Shown here: piece after piece, positions 41,835-55,907 of the stretch
How positions within the stretch are numbered: position 1 is the first letter of the stretch
How the letters are laid out: each line of letters starts with the position of its first letter
Assembly (NCBI GenBank): GCA_050950785.1
Contig: JBMNIG010000029.1
Coordinates: 63,023-127,022, forward strand
Length of the DNA stretch: 64,000 nt
Source: Eubacteriales bacterium
GTDB taxonomy: Bacteria > Bacillota > Clostridia > Oscillospirales > JAAYOS01
Reading direction: 5' to 3'
Made by a program: the position numbers and the translations under genes
The notes under the pieces: generated by a model
Told to the model about the DNA's origin: nothing
Database searches by the model: none
The model's input: the letters and a program-made list of their open reading frames with translations, nothing else

Positions 41835-41849
41835 ACTATAAAAAAAGAT

Positions 41850-41945
41850 GTAGGGGGGCTGGCGGCAAGCCGGCTGAGAGGAAACCTGACTGCGGTTTCG
41901 ACCCGGGAACCTGATCCGGATAATGCCGGCGTAGGGAAACATAAA
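41850..41945 (+). promoter_or_regulatory. TPP (THI-box) riboswitch aptamer
   Basis: GGGGGGCTGGCGGCAAGCCGGCTGAGAGGAAACCTGACTGCGGTTTCGACCCGGGAACCTGATCCGGATAATGCCGGCGTAGGGAAAC contains the invariant CUGAGA and ACCUGAUCYGGAUAAUGCCRGCG...GGGA elements. Confidence 0.9.
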
Positions 41946-41962
41946 TAATTGTTGAAGCTACG

Positions 41963-42138: not shown

Positions 42139-42669
42139 ATGACAAAGAAATTCACAAAGACGCGTATAGTTACTGAAAGTGCTATACTTATTGCGATGGC
42201 GTTTGTTCTGAGCTTGTTTAAGTTGTGGCGTATGCCAATGGGTGGCAGTGTAACTGTTGTTTCTATGCTTCCAATATTGCTGATTGGATATCGGCACGGA
42301 CTTGGATGGGGATTGATATCGGGACTTGTTTATTCGCTACTGCAATTTGTTGAGTCGCCCTATTTTCTGACACCGGTGCAGCTTTTACTTGATTACGTGC
42401 TGGCCTTTACGGTCTTGGGTGTTACAGGCTTTTTCAGAGACAAGAAATACGGTTTTCAAATTGGTACTATCTTAGGGATATTCGGAAGATTTATATGTCT
42501 AGTACTTTCGGGAGTTATCTTCTACGGCATGTATGCTGCTGATGCAGGTTTTGAGTCACCCCTTGTCTACTCAATAGTTTACAACGGTTCATACCTACTT
42601 CCCGAACTTATCCTTACCCTAATAGTCGGAACGATCGTGGTAGGAGTTCTCAAAAAAATGCGACTGTAA
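42139..42669 (+). CDS. thiT: ECF-type thiamine transporter S-component ThiT
   Basis: 176-aa protein with six TM helices. KTRIVTESAILIAMAFVLS...MPMGGSVTVVSMLPILLIGYRHGLGWG is ThiT-like. It lies downstream of the TPP riboswitch. Confidence 0.85.
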   Translation: MTKKFTKTRIVTESAILIAMAFVLSLFKLWRMPMGGSVTVVSMLPILLIGYRHGLGWGLISGLVYSLLQFVESPYFLTPVQLLLDYVLAFTVLGVTGFFRDKKYGFQIGTILGIFGRFICLVLSGVIFYGMYAADAGFESPLVYSIVYNGSYLLPELILTLIVGTIVVGVLKKMRL

Positions 42670-43001: not shown

Positions 43002-46000
43002 TTACCGGCTAAAGTGATGTACCACAGCCCTGGCAATCGACTGGGCAAGTTCCGTTTGCATTTGATCGTTGCTTAGCCATTCATATTCGGTGGGACTGCA
43101 AATAAATCCGGTTTCGAGTATAACTGAAGGCGCCCAAAATCCTCTGCATACGTACAGGCTTGCCTGATTTGCCTTTCGGTAAAAGCGCCCAAGATCGGAT
43201 GAGATATAGTTGACTAGATCTGATGCGACATCATGGGAGATGCCTCGCATATACCAGGTACTTATGCCTACGATCGAGGTGGCGTCAACATCAACTTCAA
43301 CAGCATTGTTGTGTATCGACAGAAAGAGATCGGGTTTAGCCTTTCTGGACATACTAAGGCGTTCATCCAATGTTACAGTTTCATCGTCTGTACGTGTCAT
43401 CAAGACTTCTGCACCCAACAGTTCCAATTCGTACTTCACTTTTTTTGTTGTGTAGAGGGCGATGTCCTTTTCGGCAAGGTCGAGTCCTAAAGGACCGAGG
43501 GCTCCGGCATCAGCCTTGCCATGTCCGGCGTCTAGCATAACCACGATGCCCTTTAGTGGTTTGTCGATCAAACCGGACACTGTAGGACGTCTTTTGAGAT
43601 ACAATGACAGCGTGCCGGATGCCTTAAGCGGGTCTTTCGAATCATCGACAGAGTACTCTGTATCGATATAATAGCCGTCAAGATCAACATTTTTGTCCAG
43701 CGTCAGCCGGTAAACAGCACTGCCGTCTTCAAGGTTGGATGAATAGGCAGAAACAAGACCACCTGAGATCAGTTTGATCGGATGTAGTTTGTCAACATTG
43801 CTGATAGTGAGTGAGAGTGTGGAATTATCGAGAGATACCTTGGCGGCAGGCATACCGTTGATTGTAAACCGAATACGATCCCATTTGTCGCCAACCTCGT
43901 ACTCCGATGCAATGATTTCAGCGGTGAAGGAAATGTCGTCTTCAAAGCGTTCTACATCGAAACTTTGGACCCATCCGCCCATTCTGAGGCGCACCCAAGT
44001 TCCTGAGGTGGTAACTGCGGTAACGTAATCTACCATTCCAGCTTTCAATTCACCTATCGGTCCGCCGGAAGTGGAACTTTTAGCGTAAAGAAAGGCATTG
44101 TCATTTATAACCTTTGCGTAATACGGGGCACCCGGAGTTACACAGCGCAGTGCTGCGGTTGCAGTCTTTGTAACAGTGGTTCCCTTATATGTCATTTTAT
44201 ACACAGGGGTACCAATTACAAGTATCTTTCCTGTTTTATCGGTTTTTGGCATTGTGTAGGTATAAGAATATCTTGTGTAATAGACAGCATCATCCCCGGG
44301 ACTTTTTGTTGTAGCAGGGTGGAGTTTGTAGGTATTGCCTGCGATGGTAACATTTACTGTAGCTCCTATAGGTGCGGTGCATCGAAATGTTATTTTTTCG
44401 CCGGGCATTATATAGACGTCGCTGTTGTGTGGATAAGTTGAGCCATCGATTATCTCAGCGACATCTTTCTTTACAGGGTCTGCCACCGGTTGAGAGACAG
44501 ACCTGTGAATTTTTCGGATGAGAGTGGTTTCACCCTGCACAAATTCAAGAATATTCTCGCCCTCATCCAGCTGTACTAAAACGCCGAAATAACCGCCATC
44601 AGTCACATTGTCAACCACTTCGCCATTAAGGTAAAGAGTCTGATCGGGGTCACAGGTGCCAATGACATACATCTTACTAAATGTCGTTGTGATATCCTTT
44701 GCAGGTCGCCCAAGTGTTAGGCTGTTTTCATGATCCGGACCCTCCATGACCGGATAGTCCACGCTTTCGGCGGGGCCATAGTGATGATGGATTATATAAT
44801 TTGCCAAAGGGGGATAGGTAATGAAAAAAGCATACCTGAAGTGAACAGAGCCGGCGACCTCGGGATGGGAAGCATTAAGTTCAAGTTGTCGGCGGATCTC
44901 AGCCGTTCCATACCAAGGGCTGTCCGGATTTTCATTTCCACTGCGGTAGGATGCATGACCGATGTATAGGTCCACATCAGTGTTGCGTACAACATCTATC
45001 CACCAATTTAGCAGTATCTCGTAGTCTGCAATGTTGTAACCGATGTTCCAATAGATTTGCGGACAGATATAGTCGAGCCAGCCATTGAGCACCCACTTTC
45101 TTGTGTCAGCATAATGGCTGTAGTAGGATTGATTGCCGTTTGTGTCGCTTCCAAGTTTATTTGAGGATTTATTTGCCCAGATGCCAAAGGGGGATATACC
45201 GAAGCTGACATCAGGGTCTATGGCTTTAATAGCTGAGTATGCCTCTTCAACAAGCTTGTCGATGTTATTTCTTCGCCAGTCGTCCCGGTTGGAAAATCCG
45301 TCTCCATATTTGAGATATGTCTCTTCATCACCAAAGTTGCTGTCAGGGTAGAAGTAGTCATCAAAGTGGATTCCGTCCACATCATAATTTTCAACTATTT
45401 CAACGATTCCGTCGACTATTAGGGATCTTACAGCGGGGATACCAGGGTTAAAGTACATATGTCCATCAGTATGCATCACAACCCATTCAGGATGCTTATA
45501 TGCATAGTTTTCAGGAGACAGTGTTTCAAGGTCGTGAGTTAGGCGTGCTACACGGTAGGGGTTTAGCCATGCGTGAAGCTCCAGCCCTCTGTCATGAGCC
45601 TGCTCAACCCAGAACTCTAACGGGTCAAAATCCTCCTCAGGTGCAAGCCCTTGCTTACCGGTAAGGTATGCCGACCAGGGGAATAAATCCGACTTATAGA
45701 ATGCATCTCCAGACGGGCGCACCTGTAAAAAGACGGCGTTAAAGCCCATCTTTGCGCAGTTGTCCAGTATTTCAACTGCCTCAGCTTTCAGTTCTGATAC
45801 TGAAAGTCCCGGCTTCGAAGGGTAATCCAGGTTGATGACCGTAGATACCCAAATGCCGCGAAAAGCTTCGTCTTCAATTTCCCCTTCGCCTTCAACTTCA
45901 AGTCCGGTGTCAGGTGTAGGAGTTGTTTCGTTATATTGAGGCTCATCGGAGGGCGGGATTTCTTCCGCTCCGGAGTATATATGTCCAAATGTGCTTATTA

Positions 46001-46076
46001 TCTGGCTGCATCCGGATAGGATTATAGTAGCGGCAAGGATAAGCGGCGCTATGAACCGGAGCTTTTTTGATGTCAT
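43002..46076 (-). CDS. 1024-aa lipoprotein fusing a GHL10 (DUF187, YngK-like TIM-barrel) domain, a beta-rich middle region and a C-terminal N-acetylmuramoyl-L-alanine amidase (Amidase_3)
   Basis: Lipobox ILSGC. FRGIWVSTVINLDYPSKPG...AVFLQVRPSGDAFY...LHAWLNPYR is GHL10-like. The C-terminal VVMLDAGHGKADAGALGP...DLFLSIHNNA...ILETGFICSPTE is Amidase_3-like. RBS ggaggtg is present. Confidence 0.8.
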   Translation of the reverse strand: MTSKKLRFIAPLILAATIILSGCSQIISTFGHIYSGAEEIPPSDEPQYNETTPTPDTGLEVEGEGEIEDEAFRGIWVSTVINLDYPSKPGLSVSELKAEAVEILDNCAKMGFNAVFLQVRPSGDAFYKSDLFPWSAYLTGKQGLAPEEDFDPLEFWVEQAHDRGLELHAWLNPYRVARLTHDLETLSPENYAYKHPEWVVMHTDGHMYFNPGIPAVRSLIVDGIVEIVENYDVDGIHFDDYFYPDSNFGDEETYLKYGDGFSNRDDWRRNNIDKLVEEAYSAIKAIDPDVSFGISPFGIWANKSSNKLGSDTNGNQSYYSHYADTRKWVLNGWLDYICPQIYWNIGYNIADYEILLNWWIDVVRNTDVDLYIGHASYRSGNENPDSPWYGTAEIRRQLELNASHPEVAGSVHFRYAFFITYPPLANYIIHHHYGPAESVDYPVMEGPDHENSLTLGRPAKDITTTFSKMYVIGTCDPDQTLYLNGEVVDNVTDGGYFGVLVQLDEGENILEFVQGETTLIRKIHRSVSQPVADPVKKDVAEIIDGSTYPHNSDVYIMPGEKITFRCTAPIGATVNVTIAGNTYKLHPATTKSPGDDAVYYTRYSYTYTMPKTDKTGKILVIGTPVYKMTYKGTTVTKTATAALRCVTPGAPYYAKVINDNAFLYAKSSTSGGPIGELKAGMVDYVTAVTTSGTWVRLRMGGWVQSFDVERFEDDISFTAEIIASEYEVGDKWDRIRFTINGMPAAKVSLDNSTLSLTISNVDKLHPIKLISGGLVSAYSSNLEDGSAVYRLTLDKNVDLDGYYIDTEYSVDDSKDPLKASGTLSLYLKRRPTVSGLIDKPLKGIVVMLDAGHGKADAGALGPLGLDLAEKDIALYTTKKVKYELELLGAEVLMTRTDDETVTLDERLSMSRKAKPDLFLSIHNNAVEVDVDATSIVGISTWYMRGISHDVASDLVNYISSDLGRFYRKANQASLYVCRGFWAPSVILETGFICSPTEYEWLSNDQMQTELAQSIARAVVHHFSR

Positions 46077-46168
46077 TACACACCTCCACGATACTCAGCT
46101 TTTATCACATCTATACGACTACAATTTCCTTATAAATCAAGACAATAAGTATCAAAAAAGTTTTTTTC

Positions 46169-46197
46169 ATCTTATCATAGAATTCGACGAAGTTCAA
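46169..46197 (-). promoter_or_regulatory. candidate promoter of the GHL10-amidase gene
   Basis: The minus strand reads TTGAAC (46197-46192), 17 bp, TAAGAT (46174-46169), about 90 nt upstream of ATG 46076. Confidence 0.3.
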
Positions 46198-46305
46198 CAG
46201 AGGATGTTCCCGGGCATATAGCTGTTTATAACAGCTTGTTTGATACTTATGTATTAAGGATATGCGTTTATCTACGTTTTCATGAAGGCATAGATCAAGC
46301 TCGAT

Positions 46306-46516
46306 GTGGACAGAGGAGGACGCGGGGACTGGTACTGTCTTTAGTGGATAAGGAACCAGTCGCCGCGCCCACATTACAGTGACCAATGCAGGGAACCAGG
46401 CGCCGCGTCTACATTACAGTGCCCAGTGGGCAGGGAACCAGGCGCCGCGTCTACATTTCTGTGCCCAATGGACAAGAACCAGTCTCCCCTGTCCACACAC
46501 CCATCCACCCGCGTCC
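46306..46516. repeat. GC-rich tandem repeat array (three good 40-42-bp units, one degenerate unit, one inverted partial copy)
   Basis: Units start at 46349, 46389 and 46431 (the last two are 38/42 identical), with a degenerate unit from 46473. The segment 46306-46335 resembles the reverse complement of the unit core. The array is bracketed by GTGGACAG ... CTGTCCAC. Confidence 0.8.
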
Positions 46517-46533
46517 AAAAAAATGGGCATTAT

Positions 46534-46570
46534 AAAAGGCGGGAGCATACTTGCCGAACTCCCGCCTTTT
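46534..46570 (-). terminator. bidirectional-type rho-independent terminator of the GH3 gene
   Basis: Stem AAAAGGCGGGAG / CTCCCGCCTTTT with a 13-nt loop. T-runs follow the stem on both strands. Confidence 0.8.
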
Positions 46571-46600
46571 ATCTATTCAGTTTTGTATAGGGAACACTTA

Positions 46601-48304
46601 CTAAAATTTAGTGTCAACTCTACCGCAGAAGGGGTCTACCGGGCTCTTACCCTTGAATGGAGAACGACCCATCATCTTTTCGATGACTGCTGGCATTGTA
46701 AATTCGTTGTTTGTGTATGCGTTGATAAATGTTTTCATCATTGGCACATCAAGCAGGTGATAGGGGTTTGCAAAGCTAATGGCCATGGTGGGGATCTCCT
46801 TTGAGAACCAGGGAGTGTTAGCGCCGCCAAGACCGCCCTTCCAGGAAATTCTGATAACTGTGTTATTTGAAGCAGTCGGGAAGTCAAAGACGTAAAGGGC
46901 AAGGTCATAGTTGTTCTTGAAGCTGTCAACAGTTACCGGCTTGTCGGTAATGTATCCTCCGGCTGGTGGGTCGAGTACTTCAAACCCCTCCGCCTCAAGT
47001 GCTGCCTTGATTTTTTCTTCAAGACCTGAGGTTTCGCCGAAGTAGCCGCCGCCCTCTGATACGAACAGAGCGATCCTCTTGTACTTCTCAGGAGTGATCG
47101 GTAGTAGTCCGGCTGTATCCTTTACGAGTGTAACAGATTTGTCAGCGCATTCTTTCGCCCACTCCACATATTTATCGCAGTGGAGAATTGAGAGAGCTTC
47201 TTCAGTTGGAACGAGTGTATTGTTTTGTTTTTTGACGTGGAGCCCAAGAGAGGCTTTTAGACCTAGGATCCTTGTAAGGGCTTCATTCAGACGCTCATCA
47301 GTAAGAATTCCGTTTTTGTAGCCCTGCATCATAAACTCGTAGTCTTCGTCAAAGCTCTTGTTGAACAGGAACATATCGCAACCGGCAGCAATGCTGGTCG
47401 GAACGGCCAGTTCACGAGGCATAGCACATGTGAAGCCCAGCATGGGGGTGGCGTCTGTGACTATCATACCGTTGAAGCCGAGGTGCTCTCGCAGAAGTCC
47501 GTTAAGGATTTCGGGCGATAGCGTAGCAGGGGTCAGATATGCATCTTCCTCCGACAGGTCAGGGTTGATTTTCTTTGCCCAGGCGGGCTGTGAAATGTGG
47601 CCCACCATGACGGTTTTTGCGCCTGCGTCAATCAAGCCCTTGTAGATCATGCCAAATGTGGCATCCCATTCATCGGCGGACAGATCATTCTGGGTTACAT
47701 GAAGGTGTTGATCTCGCTCATCCACTCCGTCGCCGGGGAAGTGCTTAATGGAAACAGCAACTCCTGCTTCATCAGCGCCTCTTAGATATGCAAGTCCCAT
47801 CCGAAGAACGCGCTCTGCACTATCTCCAAAGGTACGGAGGTTTGTTATGGGATTTCTGAAGTTCATATCGATATCAACTATAGGAGCAAAGGACCAGTTA
47901 CAACCGACTGCTGCGCCTTCGCTACATGAGATCAGACCGAGCCGATATGCCTGCTCCTCATCATCTGTAGCGGCTACCTGCATTGGCTTTCCGAAGTTTG
48001 TGCCGTCTATTGCTGAGCCGACGCCGCCTGCTTCAAGATTTGCTGCCAATAGAAGCGGTATTTTAGAGTTGTCCTGTAGGAAACGGTGGGTGTCCTGAAT
48101 GTCCTTGCCTAAGCCGGCACGATACATCATTCCGCCGATACCCTTGCTTAGCATTGCTTTAAGGACTTCTGGATCAGTTGAAAAACCAACCGGGCAAAAG
48201 AGTTGTCCAATTTTTTCTTCGATGGACATGCCTTCGATGGTCTCCTCGACCCATTTTATTGCTTCATCGTCCAGATAAAAAGGTTTTGCTTTTAAATCTA
48301 CCAT
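46601..48304 (-). CDS. glycoside hydrolase family 3 protein (NagZ/beta-hexosaminidase- or beta-glucosidase-like), cytoplasmic
   Basis: 567 aa with no signal peptide. GH3 N-domain motifs are present: IKHFPGDGVDERDQH and MVGHISQPAW. Confidence 0.85.
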   Translation of the reverse strand: MVDLKAKPFYLDDEAIKWVEETIEGMSIEEKIGQLFCPVGFSTDPEVLKAMLSKGIGGMMYRAGLGKDIQDTHRFLQDNSKIPLLLAANLEAGGVGSAIDGTNFGKPMQVAATDDEEQAYRLGLISCSEGAAVGCNWSFAPIVDIDMNFRNPITNLRTFGDSAERVLRMGLAYLRGADEAGVAVSIKHFPGDGVDERDQHLHVTQNDLSADEWDATFGMIYKGLIDAGAKTVMVGHISQPAWAKKINPDLSEEDAYLTPATLSPEILNGLLREHLGFNGMIVTDATPMLGFTCAMPRELAVPTSIAAGCDMFLFNKSFDEDYEFMMQGYKNGILTDERLNEALTRILGLKASLGLHVKKQNNTLVPTEEALSILHCDKYVEWAKECADKSVTLVKDTAGLLPITPEKYKRIALFVSEGGGYFGETSGLEEKIKAALEAEGFEVLDPPAGGYITDKPVTVDSFKNNYDLALYVFDFPTASNNTVIRISWKGGLGGANTPWFSKEIPTMAISFANPYHLLDVPMMKTFINAYTNNEFTMPAVIEKMMGRSPFKGKSPVDPFCGRVDTKF

Positions 48305-51051: not shown

Positions 51052-51206
51052 ATATTTAATACTGCATGCAAGAAAACTCACCTCTTGGAACCTTAAAGAT
51101 GGTGGGATGATTAGCCGTAAACCATCTCGAACACGCTGGATTCAAATAAGCCACAATGATTGATTGGAAAATAGCAGGTTATTATTAATTATCAGAACAA
51201 TTCCAG

Positions 51207-52522
51207 GCGAGTTGTAAAATTAAATGAAACACAAATAAAGAAATAAATAGACCCACGAGAGCTTCTCTGTTATAATGTTAGTTCCTACAACAAACAGAAA
51301 CGGAGAAGCTTCATGAGCCAAGTCTATTGTATCAGAACTCGCATAAAAGGTAAACACCTAAGGTTCGAAGAGCGTGAAGAGCTAGAAGCGATAGTAACTA
51401 AGAACAATTACTTGCCTAAGAAATCAAGGCTTAGCCATCGGGAAATAGCAGAACGAATGGGAGTAAGCCCAGCCACAATAAGTAGGGAGCTGAGGCGTGG
51501 GAAGGTAATCTTAAGGGATTGCCAATGGCGTGAAGTGGTTAGCTATTCAGCCTTAAAAGCCCAAGAGGACTATGATGAGAAGGCAAGTGCAAAAGGGGCT
51601 CATCTAAAAATTGGTAAGAACTATGAGTTAGCAGAAAAAATTGAGAACTGTATTATAAATGGCAAGTTCTCTCCTTATGCGACCATAGAGAAACTTAAGG
51701 ATGACCCTGACTATCAAAGAACACCCATATCTAAGCGAACGCTCTATAATTATATAGACCGTGAGTTATTACTCAATGTAACAAAAAAGGACTTACCTCG
51801 AAAAGGCAAGAGTTCAAAACGCAAGTATACCCGAGTAACCCGCAGAATACGGGATGTAGACGCCAAACGCATAGATGAGCGCCCACAAGAGGCGAATGAC
51901 CGCAGTGAGCTCGGTCACTGGGAAATGGATTGCGTTGAACCAGGTCGAGGAAAAGGCAGGGCATGCTTGCTTGTGCTGGTTGAGAGGCTATCTAGAAAGA
52001 CACTGATATTTAAGTTGCGTAGCCAAACACAAAAAGAAGTGCTAAAACGACTTGACCAACTAGAGAAAAAGATAGGTGCAAAGCGATTTCGAAAGATGTT
52101 TAAAACAATAACAGTTGATAATGGAAGTGAGTTTTTAGATTGGCGCAAGCTAGAACGGTCCTGCATAAGCAGTAAAGCACGCACCCGAATTTACTACTGT
52201 CACCCATATCATTCATGGGAAAGAGGTACCAATGAACAGATAAATGGACACATACGACGATTTATCCCCAAGGGATGTTCGATAGCGAAATACAGTACAA
52301 AAGCAATATTAAAGATCCAAGAATGGCTTAATGATTACCCACGTAAGGTTTTAGAAGGTAAATGCGCAAACGAGGTAGTTAAAGAAGAACTAAGAAAGTG
52401 TTCATAGCGAAAGCATTTCCCGTTCCGCCCAGACCCAAACCGCCAGAAACAAGTGAAAACTACAAGATATCTAGATAACATTTGACAGAGAAAAAGTGTT
52501 TCACTTTAACTTGCAATTTGCG
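51207..52522 (+). mobile_element. IS30-family insertion sequence, apparently intact (about 1.3 kb)
   Basis: Imperfect terminal inverted repeats GCGAGTTGTAAAATTAAATGAAACAC (51207-51232) and the complement of GTGTTTTCACTTTAACTTGCAATTTGCG (52495-52522). The element is flanked by the identical 16-mer ATCAGAACAATTCCAG at 51191-51206 and 52523-52538. Confidence 0.8.
51313..52407 (+). CDS. IS30-family DDE transposase
   Basis: N-terminal HTH (SHREIAERMGVSPATISRELRRG). DDE region with HWEMDCVE, TITVDNGSEF, and YYCHPYHSWERGTNEQINGHIRRFIPKG. Confidence 0.9.
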   Translation: MSQVYCIRTRIKGKHLRFEEREELEAIVTKNNYLPKKSRLSHREIAERMGVSPATISRELRRGKVILRDCQWREVVSYSALKAQEDYDEKASAKGAHLKIGKNYELAEKIENCIINGKFSPYATIEKLKDDPDYQRTPISKRTLYNYIDRELLLNVTKKDLPRKGKSSKRKYTRVTRRIRDVDAKRIDERPQEANDRSELGHWEMDCVEPGRGKGRACLLVLVERLSRKTLIFKLRSQTQKEVLKRLDQLEKKIGAKRFRKMFKTITVDNGSEFLDWRKLERSCISSKARTRIYYCHPYHSWERGTNEQINGHIRRFIPKGCSIAKYSTKAILKIQEWLNDYPRKVLEGKCANEVVKEELRKCS

Positions 52523-52547
52523 ATCAGAACAATTCCAGCAACAATAA

Positions 52548-52624: not shown

Positions 52625-54016
52625 TTGCTAAAAGACCTGATATCAAAGTACCGTGATCAGCTGCATGAGCATACAGAACTGCGTGCTCAAGTTAACACAA
52701 ACCGTGCGGTAACCTTGGTTGGAGGCAACCTCGTTACAAACTCACGTTCGGACCAGAGTGGTGTGTCTGCAAGAATGTACAAAAACGGGGTATATGGATT
52801 TGCTTCCGGTGCGGAATACACCGACGAAAGCATCAGGGCAGTTCTTAAAGCAGCAGAGGAAAATGCTCTTTTTATGGACTCTCGTGTAAAGAAAAATAAA
52901 GGGCCACTGCCTAAAGTGGCGCCGGGCACAGTTAAACTTGATCGGGATGTTAACAACCCGGACCAGAAGCTATATATTGACTTTGCTCGTGAACTGGACA
53001 GCTATTTAGCAGAAAAGTATCCGAAGCTGGCAAGCAGGGTAGTCAATATACGGTCTGACTCAATGGAGAAGTTGTTGGTTGTAAGTGACGGACATAGCTC
53101 CCATTCACTTATGCCCCGGAGCTTTATCTATTTATTCTTTACCGCGGAAACTGCCGATGGCGCACCGGTAGAACTATACAAGGTTTTTGGGGGACGAGGA
53201 TATTTTGATGAGAACTTCTCAAGCCTTGAGGATCTTTATCCGGGAATCGAGGAGCTCTACACCAATATCATGAAGAAGGCAGAAGGAGTATATCCTAACG
53301 CCGGCCACAAACAAGTGGTTATGCACCCAAACCTTGCCGGGATCCTTGCGCACGAAGCGGTTGGCCACACCGTGGAAGCCGACCTTGTTCTCGGCGGTTC
53401 AGTTGCCGCTCACAACCTAAACAGACAAGTGGCAAGTGAAATCGTGACAATGGTCGACTTTGCTCACACCGCTCTTGGAGAGACAGCGCCGCTTCCTGTT
53501 TATGTTGATGATGAAGGCACCCCATGTGAAGATGCAGTTCTGATAAAGGACGGAATCCTGACTGGCTATATGAATAGCAGAGAGACCGCGCAGCACTTTG
53601 GGATGAAACCACAGGGCAATGCAAGAGCGTATCTGTTTTCCGATGAGCCCCTTATTCGCATGAGGAACACTGCCATCCTGCCCGGGAAGGATAAGCTTGA
53701 GGACATGATTGCTTCAATTGAAGATGGTTATTACCTGACGGAAACAAATAACGGGCAGGCAGATACCACAGGTGAGTTTATGTTCGGAGTCTCGATGGGA
53801 TATGAGATAAAGAACGGAAAACTTGGCAGGGCGATCCGTGACACAACGATATCAGGTGTTGCCTTTGAAATGCTAAAAACGGTGGATATGCTTTCCGATG
53901 ATATGATTTGGACCTGTTCGGGAATGTGCGGCAAAAAACAACCGATGCCCGTTGGAATGGGCGGTCCCGCCATCAGGTGCAGGGTCAACATCGGCGGAAG
54001 AGGTAGTGTAAAGTGA
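52625..54016 (+). CDS. tldD: TldD-type metalloprotease (TldD/PmbA family)
   Basis: HExxxH motif in GILAHEAVGHTVEADL. C-terminal GxC motif region ...WTCSGMCGKKQPMPVGMGGPAIR. TTG start after aggggggat. Confidence 0.85.
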   Translation: MLKDLISKYRDQLHEHTELRAQVNTNRAVTLVGGNLVTNSRSDQSGVSARMYKNGVYGFASGAEYTDESIRAVLKAAEENALFMDSRVKKNKGPLPKVAPGTVKLDRDVNNPDQKLYIDFARELDSYLAEKYPKLASRVVNIRSDSMEKLLVVSDGHSSHSLMPRSFIYLFFTAETADGAPVELYKVFGGRGYFDENFSSLEDLYPGIEELYTNIMKKAEGVYPNAGHKQVVMHPNLAGILAHEAVGHTVEADLVLGGSVAAHNLNRQVASEIVTMVDFAHTALGETAPLPVYVDDEGTPCEDAVLIKDGILTGYMNSRETAQHFGMKPQGNARAYLFSDEPLIRMRNTAILPGKDKLEDMIASIEDGYYLTETNNGQADTTGEFMFGVSMGYEIKNGKLGRAIRDTTISGVAFEMLKTVDMLSDDMIWTCSGMCGKKQPMPVGMGGPAIRCRVNIGGRGSVK

Positions 54017-54113
54017 TATATGAAAAAGGTGGTTAAAGCAAGAGGTTGAAAAAGAACCCCTAATAACTCAAAAATGAGTTGATATAAAGCTCCCGCCACC
54101 CTTGACAAACCCC

Positions 54114-54208
54114 CAAAAATAATGCTTAGACATCACAACCGACGGCGAAGAACTCAAGAACAGCTAGAGTTCACCGTCGTTGGATGAGGCATTGTGACAT
54201 TATTTTTG
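54114..54208. other. 95-nt imperfect hairpin between the convergent tldD and transposase genes (possible bidirectional terminator or IS-end structure)
   Basis: Outer stem CAAAAATAATG (54114-54124) / CATTATTTTTG (54198-54208), perfect 11 bp. Inner stems TCACAA / TTGTGA and CGACGGCGAA / TTCACCGTCG (1 mismatch). 20-nt loop. Confidence 0.5.
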
Positions 54209-54267
54209 AGTGTTATCAAGGGCAAGTCCCTACGGGATGGCTTGGTCGTTTACCTCTGGCTCAGAAT

Positions 54268-55554
54268 CTAAGAACAGACACAGCCCTTGTCTTTTTGAAG
54301 TTGTAATTGCAGTATGGTTTGTTGTCCAAGGAAAATCAGCAGCTGCCATTTACCCGGCATGTTGTCAGCATCACGAAGCATATCAACGTTATTGAGAACT
54401 CTGTAATTGTTGGTCTTATGTGGGCGCAAGAAGTTGTAATAAGCAACCCAAAGTGCGACACTGTAGTTGGCACCATCAAAATTATCGTATCCACAAGTGA
54501 CGCGATAAGAAGCCTTAAAAGTACGATTAAGGCGCTCGACGATCTGCTTAAAAGGACGGAATTCAGTGGAAACCTCATCATCATTTGTAAGACCAATAAC
54601 TTGAGTGATATCAAAGTGTAGTCCACCATTTTCTTCTTTAGCAAACTGTTGTGCTGCTAAAGGATAGGCACTATAACCGTCAGCAATGAAGTAAAACTTT
54701 TCGGGAATTTTTCTAAGATGCCTAAAGGCCATGCGCATGGCAATAATGCATGGACCAACACCACGATTATCTGAGACTTGATACCCGATGATGGATCGTG
54801 AGATTGCATCCATAATAAACCAAATATAGCCTTTAAGGCCACGAACTTTGATATAGGTTTCGTCAGCCACCATAGTATTGGAGGCTTTGTAATCGTAATG
54901 GTCAACGAAAGGCTTAATGACAGTGGCAGCCGTTTTTGCATAGTTGGCCACCATGGTATGGGATACCTGAATGTTATATAGATCTCTAAGTGCCTGTGAA
55001 GTCTTGCGAAGGGAAAGTCCAAGGTTCACATGAAGAGTTAAGCAAAGAGACATGATGTAAGCATTGTTCTTGGTGAATTTCAAAGACGAGGCATTCTTGG
55101 GTAAGGAATCTAAATCCATGCTGAAGAAGTCTACGGTGAACTCGCGGTAGATATAATGGAGCTTATATTTGTTTTTGCCAAAATCTTCGAGATCCTTCGG
55201 ATCAACTTTTTTAAGATTATGTAGGTAGTATGAGCATCTAGTATTAACACATTTGTGTATGATGAAATGCTTACGGTCTTTCTTGTGAACAAGTGCATGT
55301 CCGCAATAAGGGCAACGCAGTTTAAGAGGTTGGTTGTACTTGTTTTCTGAACTAAATCGGGTCTGGCATACCTTGCAAAGCACTTGACCCTTGGAGCCAT
55401 TATTCTTGTATAAATAAGGCGAAGGTGCACCGCAACGAGGGCAGTGGCACTCCTCCGGAATATCACATTTTTCTACGACGCCTAACCGGCTTGACAGTGT
55501 AGTTGTAACGTTCTTTGTAGTACTGGATAAGAAGAAGATAATCAACAATCTCAT
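54268..55554 (-). CDS. DDE transposase, IS6/IS240-like core with N-terminal double zinc-ribbon region
   Basis: CHCPRCG...CKVCQTRF and CPYCGH...HKCVNTRCSYY form zinc ribbons. DDE core: MVADETYIKVRGLKGYIWFIMDAISRSIIGY, FIADGYSAYP, and IVERLNRTFK. The true N-terminus probably continues into ORF 55463-55729 through a frameshift. Confidence 0.8.
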   Translation of the reverse strand: MRLLIIFFLSSTTKNVTTTLSSRLGVVEKCDIPEECHCPRCGAPSPYLYKNNGSKGQVLCKVCQTRFSSENKYNQPLKLRCPYCGHALVHKKDRKHFIIHKCVNTRCSYYLHNLKKVDPKDLEDFGKNKYKLHYIYREFTVDFFSMDLDSLPKNASSLKFTKNNAYIMSLCLTLHVNLGLSLRKTSQALRDLYNIQVSHTMVANYAKTAATVIKPFVDHYDYKASNTMVADETYIKVRGLKGYIWFIMDAISRSIIGYQVSDNRGVGPCIIAMRMAFRHLRKIPEKFYFIADGYSAYPLAAQQFAKEENGGLHFDITQVIGLTNDDEVSTEFRPFKQIVERLNRTFKASYRVTCGYDNFDGANYSVALWVAYYNFLRPHKTNNYRVLNNVDMLRDADNMPGKWQLLIFLGQQTILQLQLQKDKGCVCS

Positions 55555-55729
55555 AGTTAATTACAACAGGAAGAATATCAGTTTTAAACTTTTGATATTT
55601 AGGGGAATGAGAATCGTCAAAGTTCCACTGCTTGAGTGGAATGAATTTTGCGATGAAACGCGTTAACCAACAAATTTGGTAATATTGGTATTGGATTAGA
55701 GTAAGTAAATAGGTTATAATTGAAGACAT
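55463..55729 (-). CDS. 88-aa upstream ORF, likely the displaced N-terminus of the IS6-like transposase
   Basis: It ends ...YTVKPVRRRRKM* and overlaps the main ORF by 92 nt. Removing one A from the A5 run (+ strand T5 55468-55472) fuses it as ...RRRKCDIPEECHCPRCG. Confidence 0.4.
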   Translation of the reverse strand: MSSIITYLLTLIQYQYYQICWLTRFIAKFIPLKQWNFDDSHSPKYQKFKTDILPVVINYEIVDYLLLIQYYKERYNYTVKPVRRRRKM

Positions 55730-55907
55730 AACAATGACATCCTTTCAGGGATTTTTGGTGTGTGGTAACTTCAATTATAACTGAAAATGGGGGGTCATTG
55801 TTATTTTTATGTAAAAAAAATCAGAAAACCCTTGAAAATAAAGGGTTATTCCAAAAAAAAGGAGTGTCAGACTTGACACTACCGCGGAAGATAAGGAGGG
55901 AGCTCTT

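Follow-up and report, generated by a model that had tools for sequence, protein, structure and literature searches.

The 42-bp tandem array analysed here is a real feature that is best read as an ordinary bacterial VNTR, its unit being carried in two to five copies, depending on the strain, by one species of Clostridia. The array is probably a non-coding, single-locus and lineage-specific minisatellite (VNTR), and we infer no sequence-specific function for it. It was studied within a 64-kb stretch of DNA, referred to throughout as the window, where it occupies the spacer between two genes that both lie on the minus strand, a NagZ-like GH3 gene (46601-48304) and a GHL10+Amidase_3 gene (43002-46076; the amidase gene below). 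Following the direction of transcription, the order of elements is GH3 stop, terminator hairpin, degenerate unit, three units, inverted copy, AT-rich region and amidase start. A preliminary description of this DNA had placed the array between the GH3 terminator and the promoter region of the amidase gene, which is correct once the strand is considered.

The upstream boundary of the variable spacer is the intrinsic terminator of the GH3 gene (46532-46572, minus strand; stem GGCGGGAG/CTCCCGCC), an inverted repeat whose 14-nt arms are 100% complementary and whose hairpin is kept in the sister lineages L013 and L043. Because this hairpin has A and T runs on both of its flanks, it looks bidirectional. 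At the other side of the spacer, a putative amidase promoter was read from the sequence (46169-46197, minus strand), consisting of TTGAAC, a 17-nt spacer and TG-n-TAAGAT; an automated promoter scan did not return this site, and the motif is kept upstream of amidase orthologues in six lineages (L013, L017, L019, L043, L046 and L050). The array lies approximately 110-330 bp upstream of the inferred promoter (about -110 to -330) and, being situated between a strong terminator and a conserved promoter, it is not obviously part of either mRNA.

Two further motifs were observed in this region. The 17-nt spacer of the inferred amidase promoter contains CGTCGAA, which is kept in five other lineages, while the sixth, L019, has TGTCGAG. 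CGTCGAA resembles a Spo0A box (TGNCGAA), a hint that the GHL10-amidase gene may be controlled in sporulation or stationary phase. Closer to the array, the motif TCATGAAAnCGT...GCATATCC (46258-46285, minus strand) is kept in the window, in L013 and more weakly in L017, the rest of the spacer being unalignable.

The array itself is built from three head-to-tail units spanning 46349-46472, and their limits are exactly those that had been quoted: 46349-46388 for unit 1 (40 nt), 46389-46430 for unit 2 (42 nt) and 46431-46472 for unit 3 (42 nt), with units 2 and 3 identical at 38/42 positions when read directly. On the plus strand the units share the invariant core GGAACCAG-K-CGCCGCG, and the core CGCGGCGMCTGGTTCC is the same in all unit variants seen across strains. 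Tandem Repeats Finder (TRF) delimited the array at 46352-46482 (period 42, 3.2 copies, 85% matches, score 178) and reported it as the sole repeat with a period above 17 in the window. A search with the 30-nt unit core, allowing up to three mismatches, gave three matches in the window, all of them inside the array, and dinucleotide-preserving shuffles contained such matches in 0/100 cases. The degenerate unit proposed to follow from 46473 was borne out, in that it carries GAACCAGTCTCC, a sequence common to the full units. Positions 46473-46519 are filled by this fourth unit and the right end repeat, followed by a GC-rich tail that closes with CCCGCGTCC, adjoining the T-run of the terminator.

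The sequences that flank the units can pair with them and with each other. An inverted partial copy of the unit core (GGACGCGGGGACTGGTAC, 46318-46335) had been recognised previously and pairs better than was first stated, with 88% complementarity over 16 nt between 46318-46333 and 46355-46370. Two further pairings of the inverted copy with units each cover 15 nt at 87%, and pairing is possible with any unit core; the copy is identical across all conspecific contigs. The array had also been said to be bracketed by 8-nt sequences. The bracket is present, and its length was underestimated: the left end repeat TGTGGACAGAGGAG (46305-46318) and the right end repeat CTCCCCTGTCCACA (46484-46497) form an inverted repeat of 14 nt in which 13/14 positions pair (93%). 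Each unit is composed of one inverted-repeat arm (GAACCAGKCGCCGCG, complementary to the inverted copy) and ~24 nt of adjacent sequence, suggesting that a hairpin-prone segment became tandemly duplicated. Some unit junctions carry a palindrome of 11-13 nt, GCCCAnTGGGC, which is degraded at other junctions; over its full length the unit is not palindromic. The units, 40-42 nt in length, are contiguous, their successive starts being 40 and 42 bp apart. They are thus distinct from a CRISPR array, in which repeats are parted by unique spacers of similar length, as the preliminary description had concluded.

The composition of the block sets it apart from its surroundings. The GC content of 46306-46519 is 59%, whereas the whole window has 44.6% and the adjoining 46090-46305 has 33%, and the block is indeed far more GC-rich than the AT-rich spacer in which it sits. 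Only 0.06% of the 214-bp stretches of the window reach this GC content, with the block ranking first.

That no ORF explains the array, as had been proposed, was upheld by the change of frame between its 40-nt and 42-nt unit variants and by the lack of a Pfam match. A plus-strand ORF at 46386-46535 (49 aa, MQGTRRRVYITVPSG QGTRRRVYISVPNG..., with an in-frame 14-aa repeat) ends just before the terminator. We rejected a small protein encoded by this ORF because the first unit is 42 nt in other strains instead of 40 nt, which shifts the frame, and because the ORF is not preceded by a ribosome-binding site and has no Pfam match. A 131-aa ORF called in L002 was likewise set aside, since it is broken in the window. 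Pfam returned no match for any ORF of the array, and no ORF is conserved between strains.

A look-up of the exact GH3 protein (567 aa) yielded ten contigs from independent assemblies, with flanks 98.4-99.6% identical to the window and an identical GH3 protein. Among conspecific strains the number of units is observed to vary. Seven conspecific contigs hold two units of 42 nt, arranged a,b, and L002 holds two units of which one is the 40-nt variant; the window allele has three units, and L004 five, arranged a,b,c,c,b. All these copy numbers derive from assemblies of short reads, in which tandem repeats may be collapsed or broken. The unit orders differ between strains, which argues for real alleles over collapsed assemblies. 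In L008, L009 and L036 the ends of the contigs fall inside the array, and the strain-variable array is the reason that several metagenome contigs break here. The array shows two properties of a VNTR, contiguous head-to-tail units within the ~10-100 bp range and copy-number polymorphism among close strains (in short-read assemblies).

Also in keeping with a minisatellite, the spacer tolerates change, including the insertion of an IS in most conspecific strains. At the equivalent of position 46205, an IS with a UPF0236 (PF06782) transposase is present in L001, L003-L007, L010 and L036, its junction lying 8 bp upstream of the -35 hexamer of the amidase promoter. Past this IS, those contigs run into an SLH-domain gene, not the amidase gene, which suggests an IS-mediated rearrangement. 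Because the IS and the rearrangement part the array from the amidase gene in most strains, the array travels with the GH3 side and persists without an amidase neighbour. We also considered the array as the end of a neighbouring IS, the UPF0236 transposase gene being ~480 bp downstream of GH3 in most strains; this was rejected because the IS junction at 46205 is outside the array and the end repeats are unrelated. Elsewhere in the window, two IS insertions (51206-52523 and 54001-55884) are missing from the conspecific L002 and L004. One of them is IS30-like (HTH_38 + rve, 364 aa), and the other encodes a DDE transposase (428 aa) with IS66/IS240-type matches and lies between two PmbA/TldD genes.

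According to the model that we infer, a ~200-bp GC-rich segment with imperfect inverted-repeat bounds would have been located in an unconstrained terminator-promoter spacer, where one inverted-repeat arm and ~24 nt of adjacent sequence would have undergone tandem duplication. The copy number now goes up and down in 42-bp steps, the likely mechanism being slipped-strand mispairing in replication or unequal recombination between units, and the hairpin-forming arms would probably promote such slippage or recombination. If the array affects the amidase gene at all, it would do so indirectly, by way of the spacing or the local DNA structure ahead of the promoter. As found, the array matters little: it is a strain-variable marker with a possible use in typing this anaerobic-digester Clostridiales species. 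One property that stands against the minisatellite reading is that the block has the top GC content in 64 kb, which a neutral and purely local origin leaves unexplained.

The possibility of a REP/BIME-like element, raised in the preliminary description, is contradicted by the confinement of the unit to a single locus. Mismatch search, blastn-short and nhmmer with a unit profile (--max), applied to the 64-kb window and to 243 kb of related loci, detected no second copy. A 22-nt degenerate unit pattern was then scanned over one genome per species for 185,579 species, and it matched this locus in the conspecific MAG JAAYOS01 and one site in an unrelated Bacillota MAG (L011). By our estimate, about 0.5-1 match would be expected by chance over this set; the L011 match about equals the one chance match so estimated and is consistent with chance. 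L011 was rejected as a copy, being a single 22-mer within a 10-bp hairpin after a carboxyltransferase-like ORF and showing no tandem structure. The unit was absent from the viral contig, plasmid and phage collections searched. The end-repeat pattern had 18 matches in metagenomes, of which only L036 was real and represents this same locus; the other 17/18 were chance matches. Within the limits of the representative genome, these searches rule out membership of a REP, BIME or MITE family; the sole conspecific genome scanned was a fragmented MAG, such that further copies dispersed over the genome to which the window belongs are not strictly excluded. Absence of other copies and of conservation in relatives had been named beforehand as the pattern that would point to a neutral local duplication, and this is what was found for the part of it that can be computed.

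The anatomy of the block also invites a reading as a solo, decayed and non-autonomous mobile element of the BOX, BrickBuilt or MITE type, which would have inserted just after the terminator and since lost its mobility. Its parts would be inverted-repeat end modules (TGT...ACA), a tandem internal module and inverted sub-terminal motifs that are putatively bound by a transposase, and the end sequence that a partner transposase would match is TGTGGACAGRGGAG. Such an element would account for the 14-nt end inverted repeat (13/14) with its TG...CA termini, for the GACTGGTWC that adjoins both ends in inverted orientation, and for an internal tandem module that varies in number, like boxB in BOX (PMC3049150) and the 23-nt unit in BrickBuilt (PMC4596501). 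The GC content of the block is foreign to its surroundings, the genome is rich in IS elements and, in the sister lineage L043, a GC-rich block opens with the same TGTGGACA(C/G)GGAG directly after the terminator. We nevertheless consider a mobile element unlikely. There is no second copy in the window, in related loci, in 185,579 species genomes or in the metagenome, viral, plasmid and phage collections. Neither candidate boundary has a target-site duplication, the flanks reading ...GCTCGA|TGTGG and CCACA|CACCC with no direct repeat. Sister lineages offer no clean empty site, as the whole spacer differs, and the terminal repeats of the IS30-like and IS66-like elements of the window and of the UPF0236 IS are unrelated to those of the block. 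Of three hallmarks of MITE, BOX and BrickBuilt elements, the block has terminal inverted repeats, target-site duplication and multiple copies or a matching transposase all being absent in these searches. A decayed solo element is a possible origin of the GC-rich seed from which the minisatellite arose.

No named family was found for the array, in line with the preliminary description, which had recognised none. Bacterial intergenic VNTRs serve in MLVA typing, the mycobacterial MIRU-VNTR loci being an example, and MIRUs form a family over about 40 loci, often reaching into the stop and start codons of the genes on either side. The array resembles VNTRs in having intergenic head-to-tail units of tens of bp, in differing in copy number between close strains and in the shuffling of variant units, probably by slippage or unequal recombination. 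Unlike MIRUs, it occupies one locus, between a terminator and a promoter, and is accompanied by an inverted partial copy and bracketing inverted repeats. The REP elements of enterobacteria are short palindromic units with hundreds of copies, which alternate in orientation within BIMEs. With these the array shares the character of a GC-rich, hairpin-forming extragenic sequence at a gene end, such sequences being sometimes clustered, whereas here the repeats form a direct tandem array and, instead of many dispersed copies, there is one locus.

REP and BIME elements are also mentioned in the literature (PMC3049150; PMC3184786). The BOX elements of pneumococci have the structure boxA-(boxB)n-boxC, with pairable end modules and a ~45-bp internal tandem module in strain-variable number; they are intergenic, MITE-like and dispersed over many genome loci (PMC3049150). 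The array is similarly modular, with pairable ends around a variable number of tandem internal modules, but the 42-bp element is single-copy in all collections searched and has no sequence in common with BOX. BrickBuilt of Porphyromonas gingivalis is a MITE with an internal minisatellite, leader and tail subunits and small inverted-repeat ends, and it is intergenic and found in one species; its unit is 23 nt, it occurs 19 times in ATCC 33277 and it contains promoter elements (PMC4596501). Here too there is a spacer-less tandem repeat with inverted-repeat ends that is intergenic and restricted to one species; however, this element is built on a 42-nt unit, occurs once and showed no promoter within the array. 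Although the anatomy is similar, the element was not filed with BOX or BrickBuilt, because neither multiple copies nor target-site duplications were found.

We turn to the orthologous loci. GH3 identity to the window is 92% in L013-16, 85% in L017-18 and 76% in L019, and in all of these lineages the HAD-GH3-amidase gene order and the amidase promoter are kept, each having a GH3 terminator of its own, which in the 92% lineage (L013-16) is the same as that of the window. The array is missing from L013-16, L017-18 and L019, where the terminator-promoter spacer does not align with the window, and units are also missing from L046 and L050 despite the kept promoter.

This distribution bears on a further explanation, in which the units are phased protein-binding sites (42 bp corresponding to four helical turns) that tune or insulate the GHL10-amidase gene, with copy number serving as an inherited setting, as at a contingency locus. 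The position of the array at -110 to -330 from a conserved promoter would suit this role, and strains do differ in copy number. The 42-bp period of four helical turns and the junction palindrome GCCCAnTGGGC are also what would be expected of phased binding sites, and in this respect they speak against the minisatellite reading; the core CGCGGCGMCTGGTTCC is invariant in all unit variants seen and a second, unrelated array is present in the same spacer of L043. However, binding sites conserved at orthologous promoters were not found, since the sister lineages have the same promoter and lack the units. Several units have a degraded form of the palindrome (GTCCATTGGGC, GCCCATTGGTC and GC--ATTGGTC), no regulator gene is adjacent, and the units (at least 80% identity) are too young for an invariant core to mean selection. 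Moreover, in most conspecific strains the array persists where the IS and the rearrangement have parted it from the amidase gene, which argues against a role tied to that gene. Taken together, a binding-site function appears very unlikely.

A structured RNA had also been put forward among the possible roles, beside iterated protein-binding sites and the REP/BIME-like element, and none of the three gained support. Such an RNA could be a stabiliser in the 3' read-through of GH3, a 5' leader of the amidase gene, or a plus-strand small RNA ending at the bidirectional terminator. Compared with 200 shuffles, both strands of the array fold better than all (z = -3.3 and -3.7), and A and T runs flank the terminator on both sides. 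There is in addition a promoter-like sequence just upstream of the array, TCGGCA-17-TATAAT (10/12; 46529-46557, minus strand), which overlaps the GH3 terminator and is directed into the array. The strong fold scores arise because inverted and tandem repeats alone yield them. The promoter-like site occurs at the frequency of chance (1 found compared with 1.5 expected) and is not kept in L013 or L043, and the array comes after a strong intrinsic terminator and before a conserved promoter. Rfam, for which a check had been suggested, contains no family matching the array region: there was no match at E<=10 beyond terminator-driven noise, and the matches near the array, among them one of 11 bits (E=9), are far below the gathering score. 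The element is missing from orthologous spacers, so that no covariation test is possible. These observations make a structured RNA extremely improbable. A Group II intron fragment, a DnaA-box cluster, WalR sites and a Noc-like site were each tried as identities for the array and rejected, their motif matches being at chance level and without an Rfam match.

The sister lineage L041/L043 (GH3 ~90% and amidase 81% identical to the window) has an array of its own in the same terminator-promoter spacer. This GC-rich array (L043:293-424) comprises 2.5 copies of a 52-bp unit with an internal 10-bp sub-repeat, CCCTTGGTTG, and it is preceded by a GC-rich block of ~90 bp. Directly after the terminator the L043 spacer opens with TGTGGACACGGAG, which matches the window end repeat at 12/13 positions. 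Homology between the window element and the block or array of L043 was tried and rejected, because the best local (Smith-Waterman) scores of 20-21 were matched by 30/300 shuffles, and nhmmer found no relation between the 42-bp unit and the L043 array. The suggestive likeness between the two loci is limited to the 12/13 match, TGTGGACA(G/C)GGAG, after the terminator.

A third array was found in L020 (GCA_902363555.1), whose GH3 is 74% identical to that of the window. It is GC-rich, has an internal hairpin and comprises 2.2 copies of an 82-bp unit (L020:6191-6368); it lies ~490 bp downstream of the GH3 orthologue, behind the terminator of a separate small unit, beginning right after the terminator T-run and ending ~65 bp before the rtcB gene. 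An E-value scan of this array against Rfam gave no convincing match.

These three were the only intergenic minisatellites in the fetched loci, which were centred on GH3, and all of them lie downstream of GH3, in the window species, L043 and L020. All three begin directly behind a terminator T-run, and their unit sequences are unrelated. Counted post hoc, 3/7 lineages have an array downstream of GH3, compared with none in the other fetched spacers. The L043 array in the same spacer and the L020 array downstream of GH3 speak against the array of the window being a minisatellite of purely local origin, and the recurrence of arrays at one place may be a sign of selection or of a process specific to the site. 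It could reflect an undescribed element or process that targets terminators, or selection for a structural module, tunable in copy number, upstream of a cell-wall hydrolase gene. We regard it as quite improbable that the spacer after the terminator of the nagZ-like GH3 gene is a repeated birthplace of GC-rich minisatellites with three unrelated units. If the recurrence of unrelated post-terminator arrays were non-random, it would indicate either a process that generates repeats at a specific site or a dial, set by copy number, that acts on a peptidoglycan hydrolase gene.

Other repeats and regulatory elements were observed in these loci. In L050 (3297-3369), and also in L051 and L052, a 24-bp repeat is present three times in the N-terminal coding region of an amidase orthologue with 69% identity; this is a coding tandem repeat that is unrelated to the 42-bp array. 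The sole Rfam match of the window at the gathering score is a TPP riboswitch elsewhere in it (41842-41955, plus strand; 66.5 bits, above the gathering score), which lies upstream of a ThiT/YuaJ thiamine transporter gene (42139-42669), and in L043 a TPP riboswitch and a ThiT/YuaJ gene are arranged as in the window.
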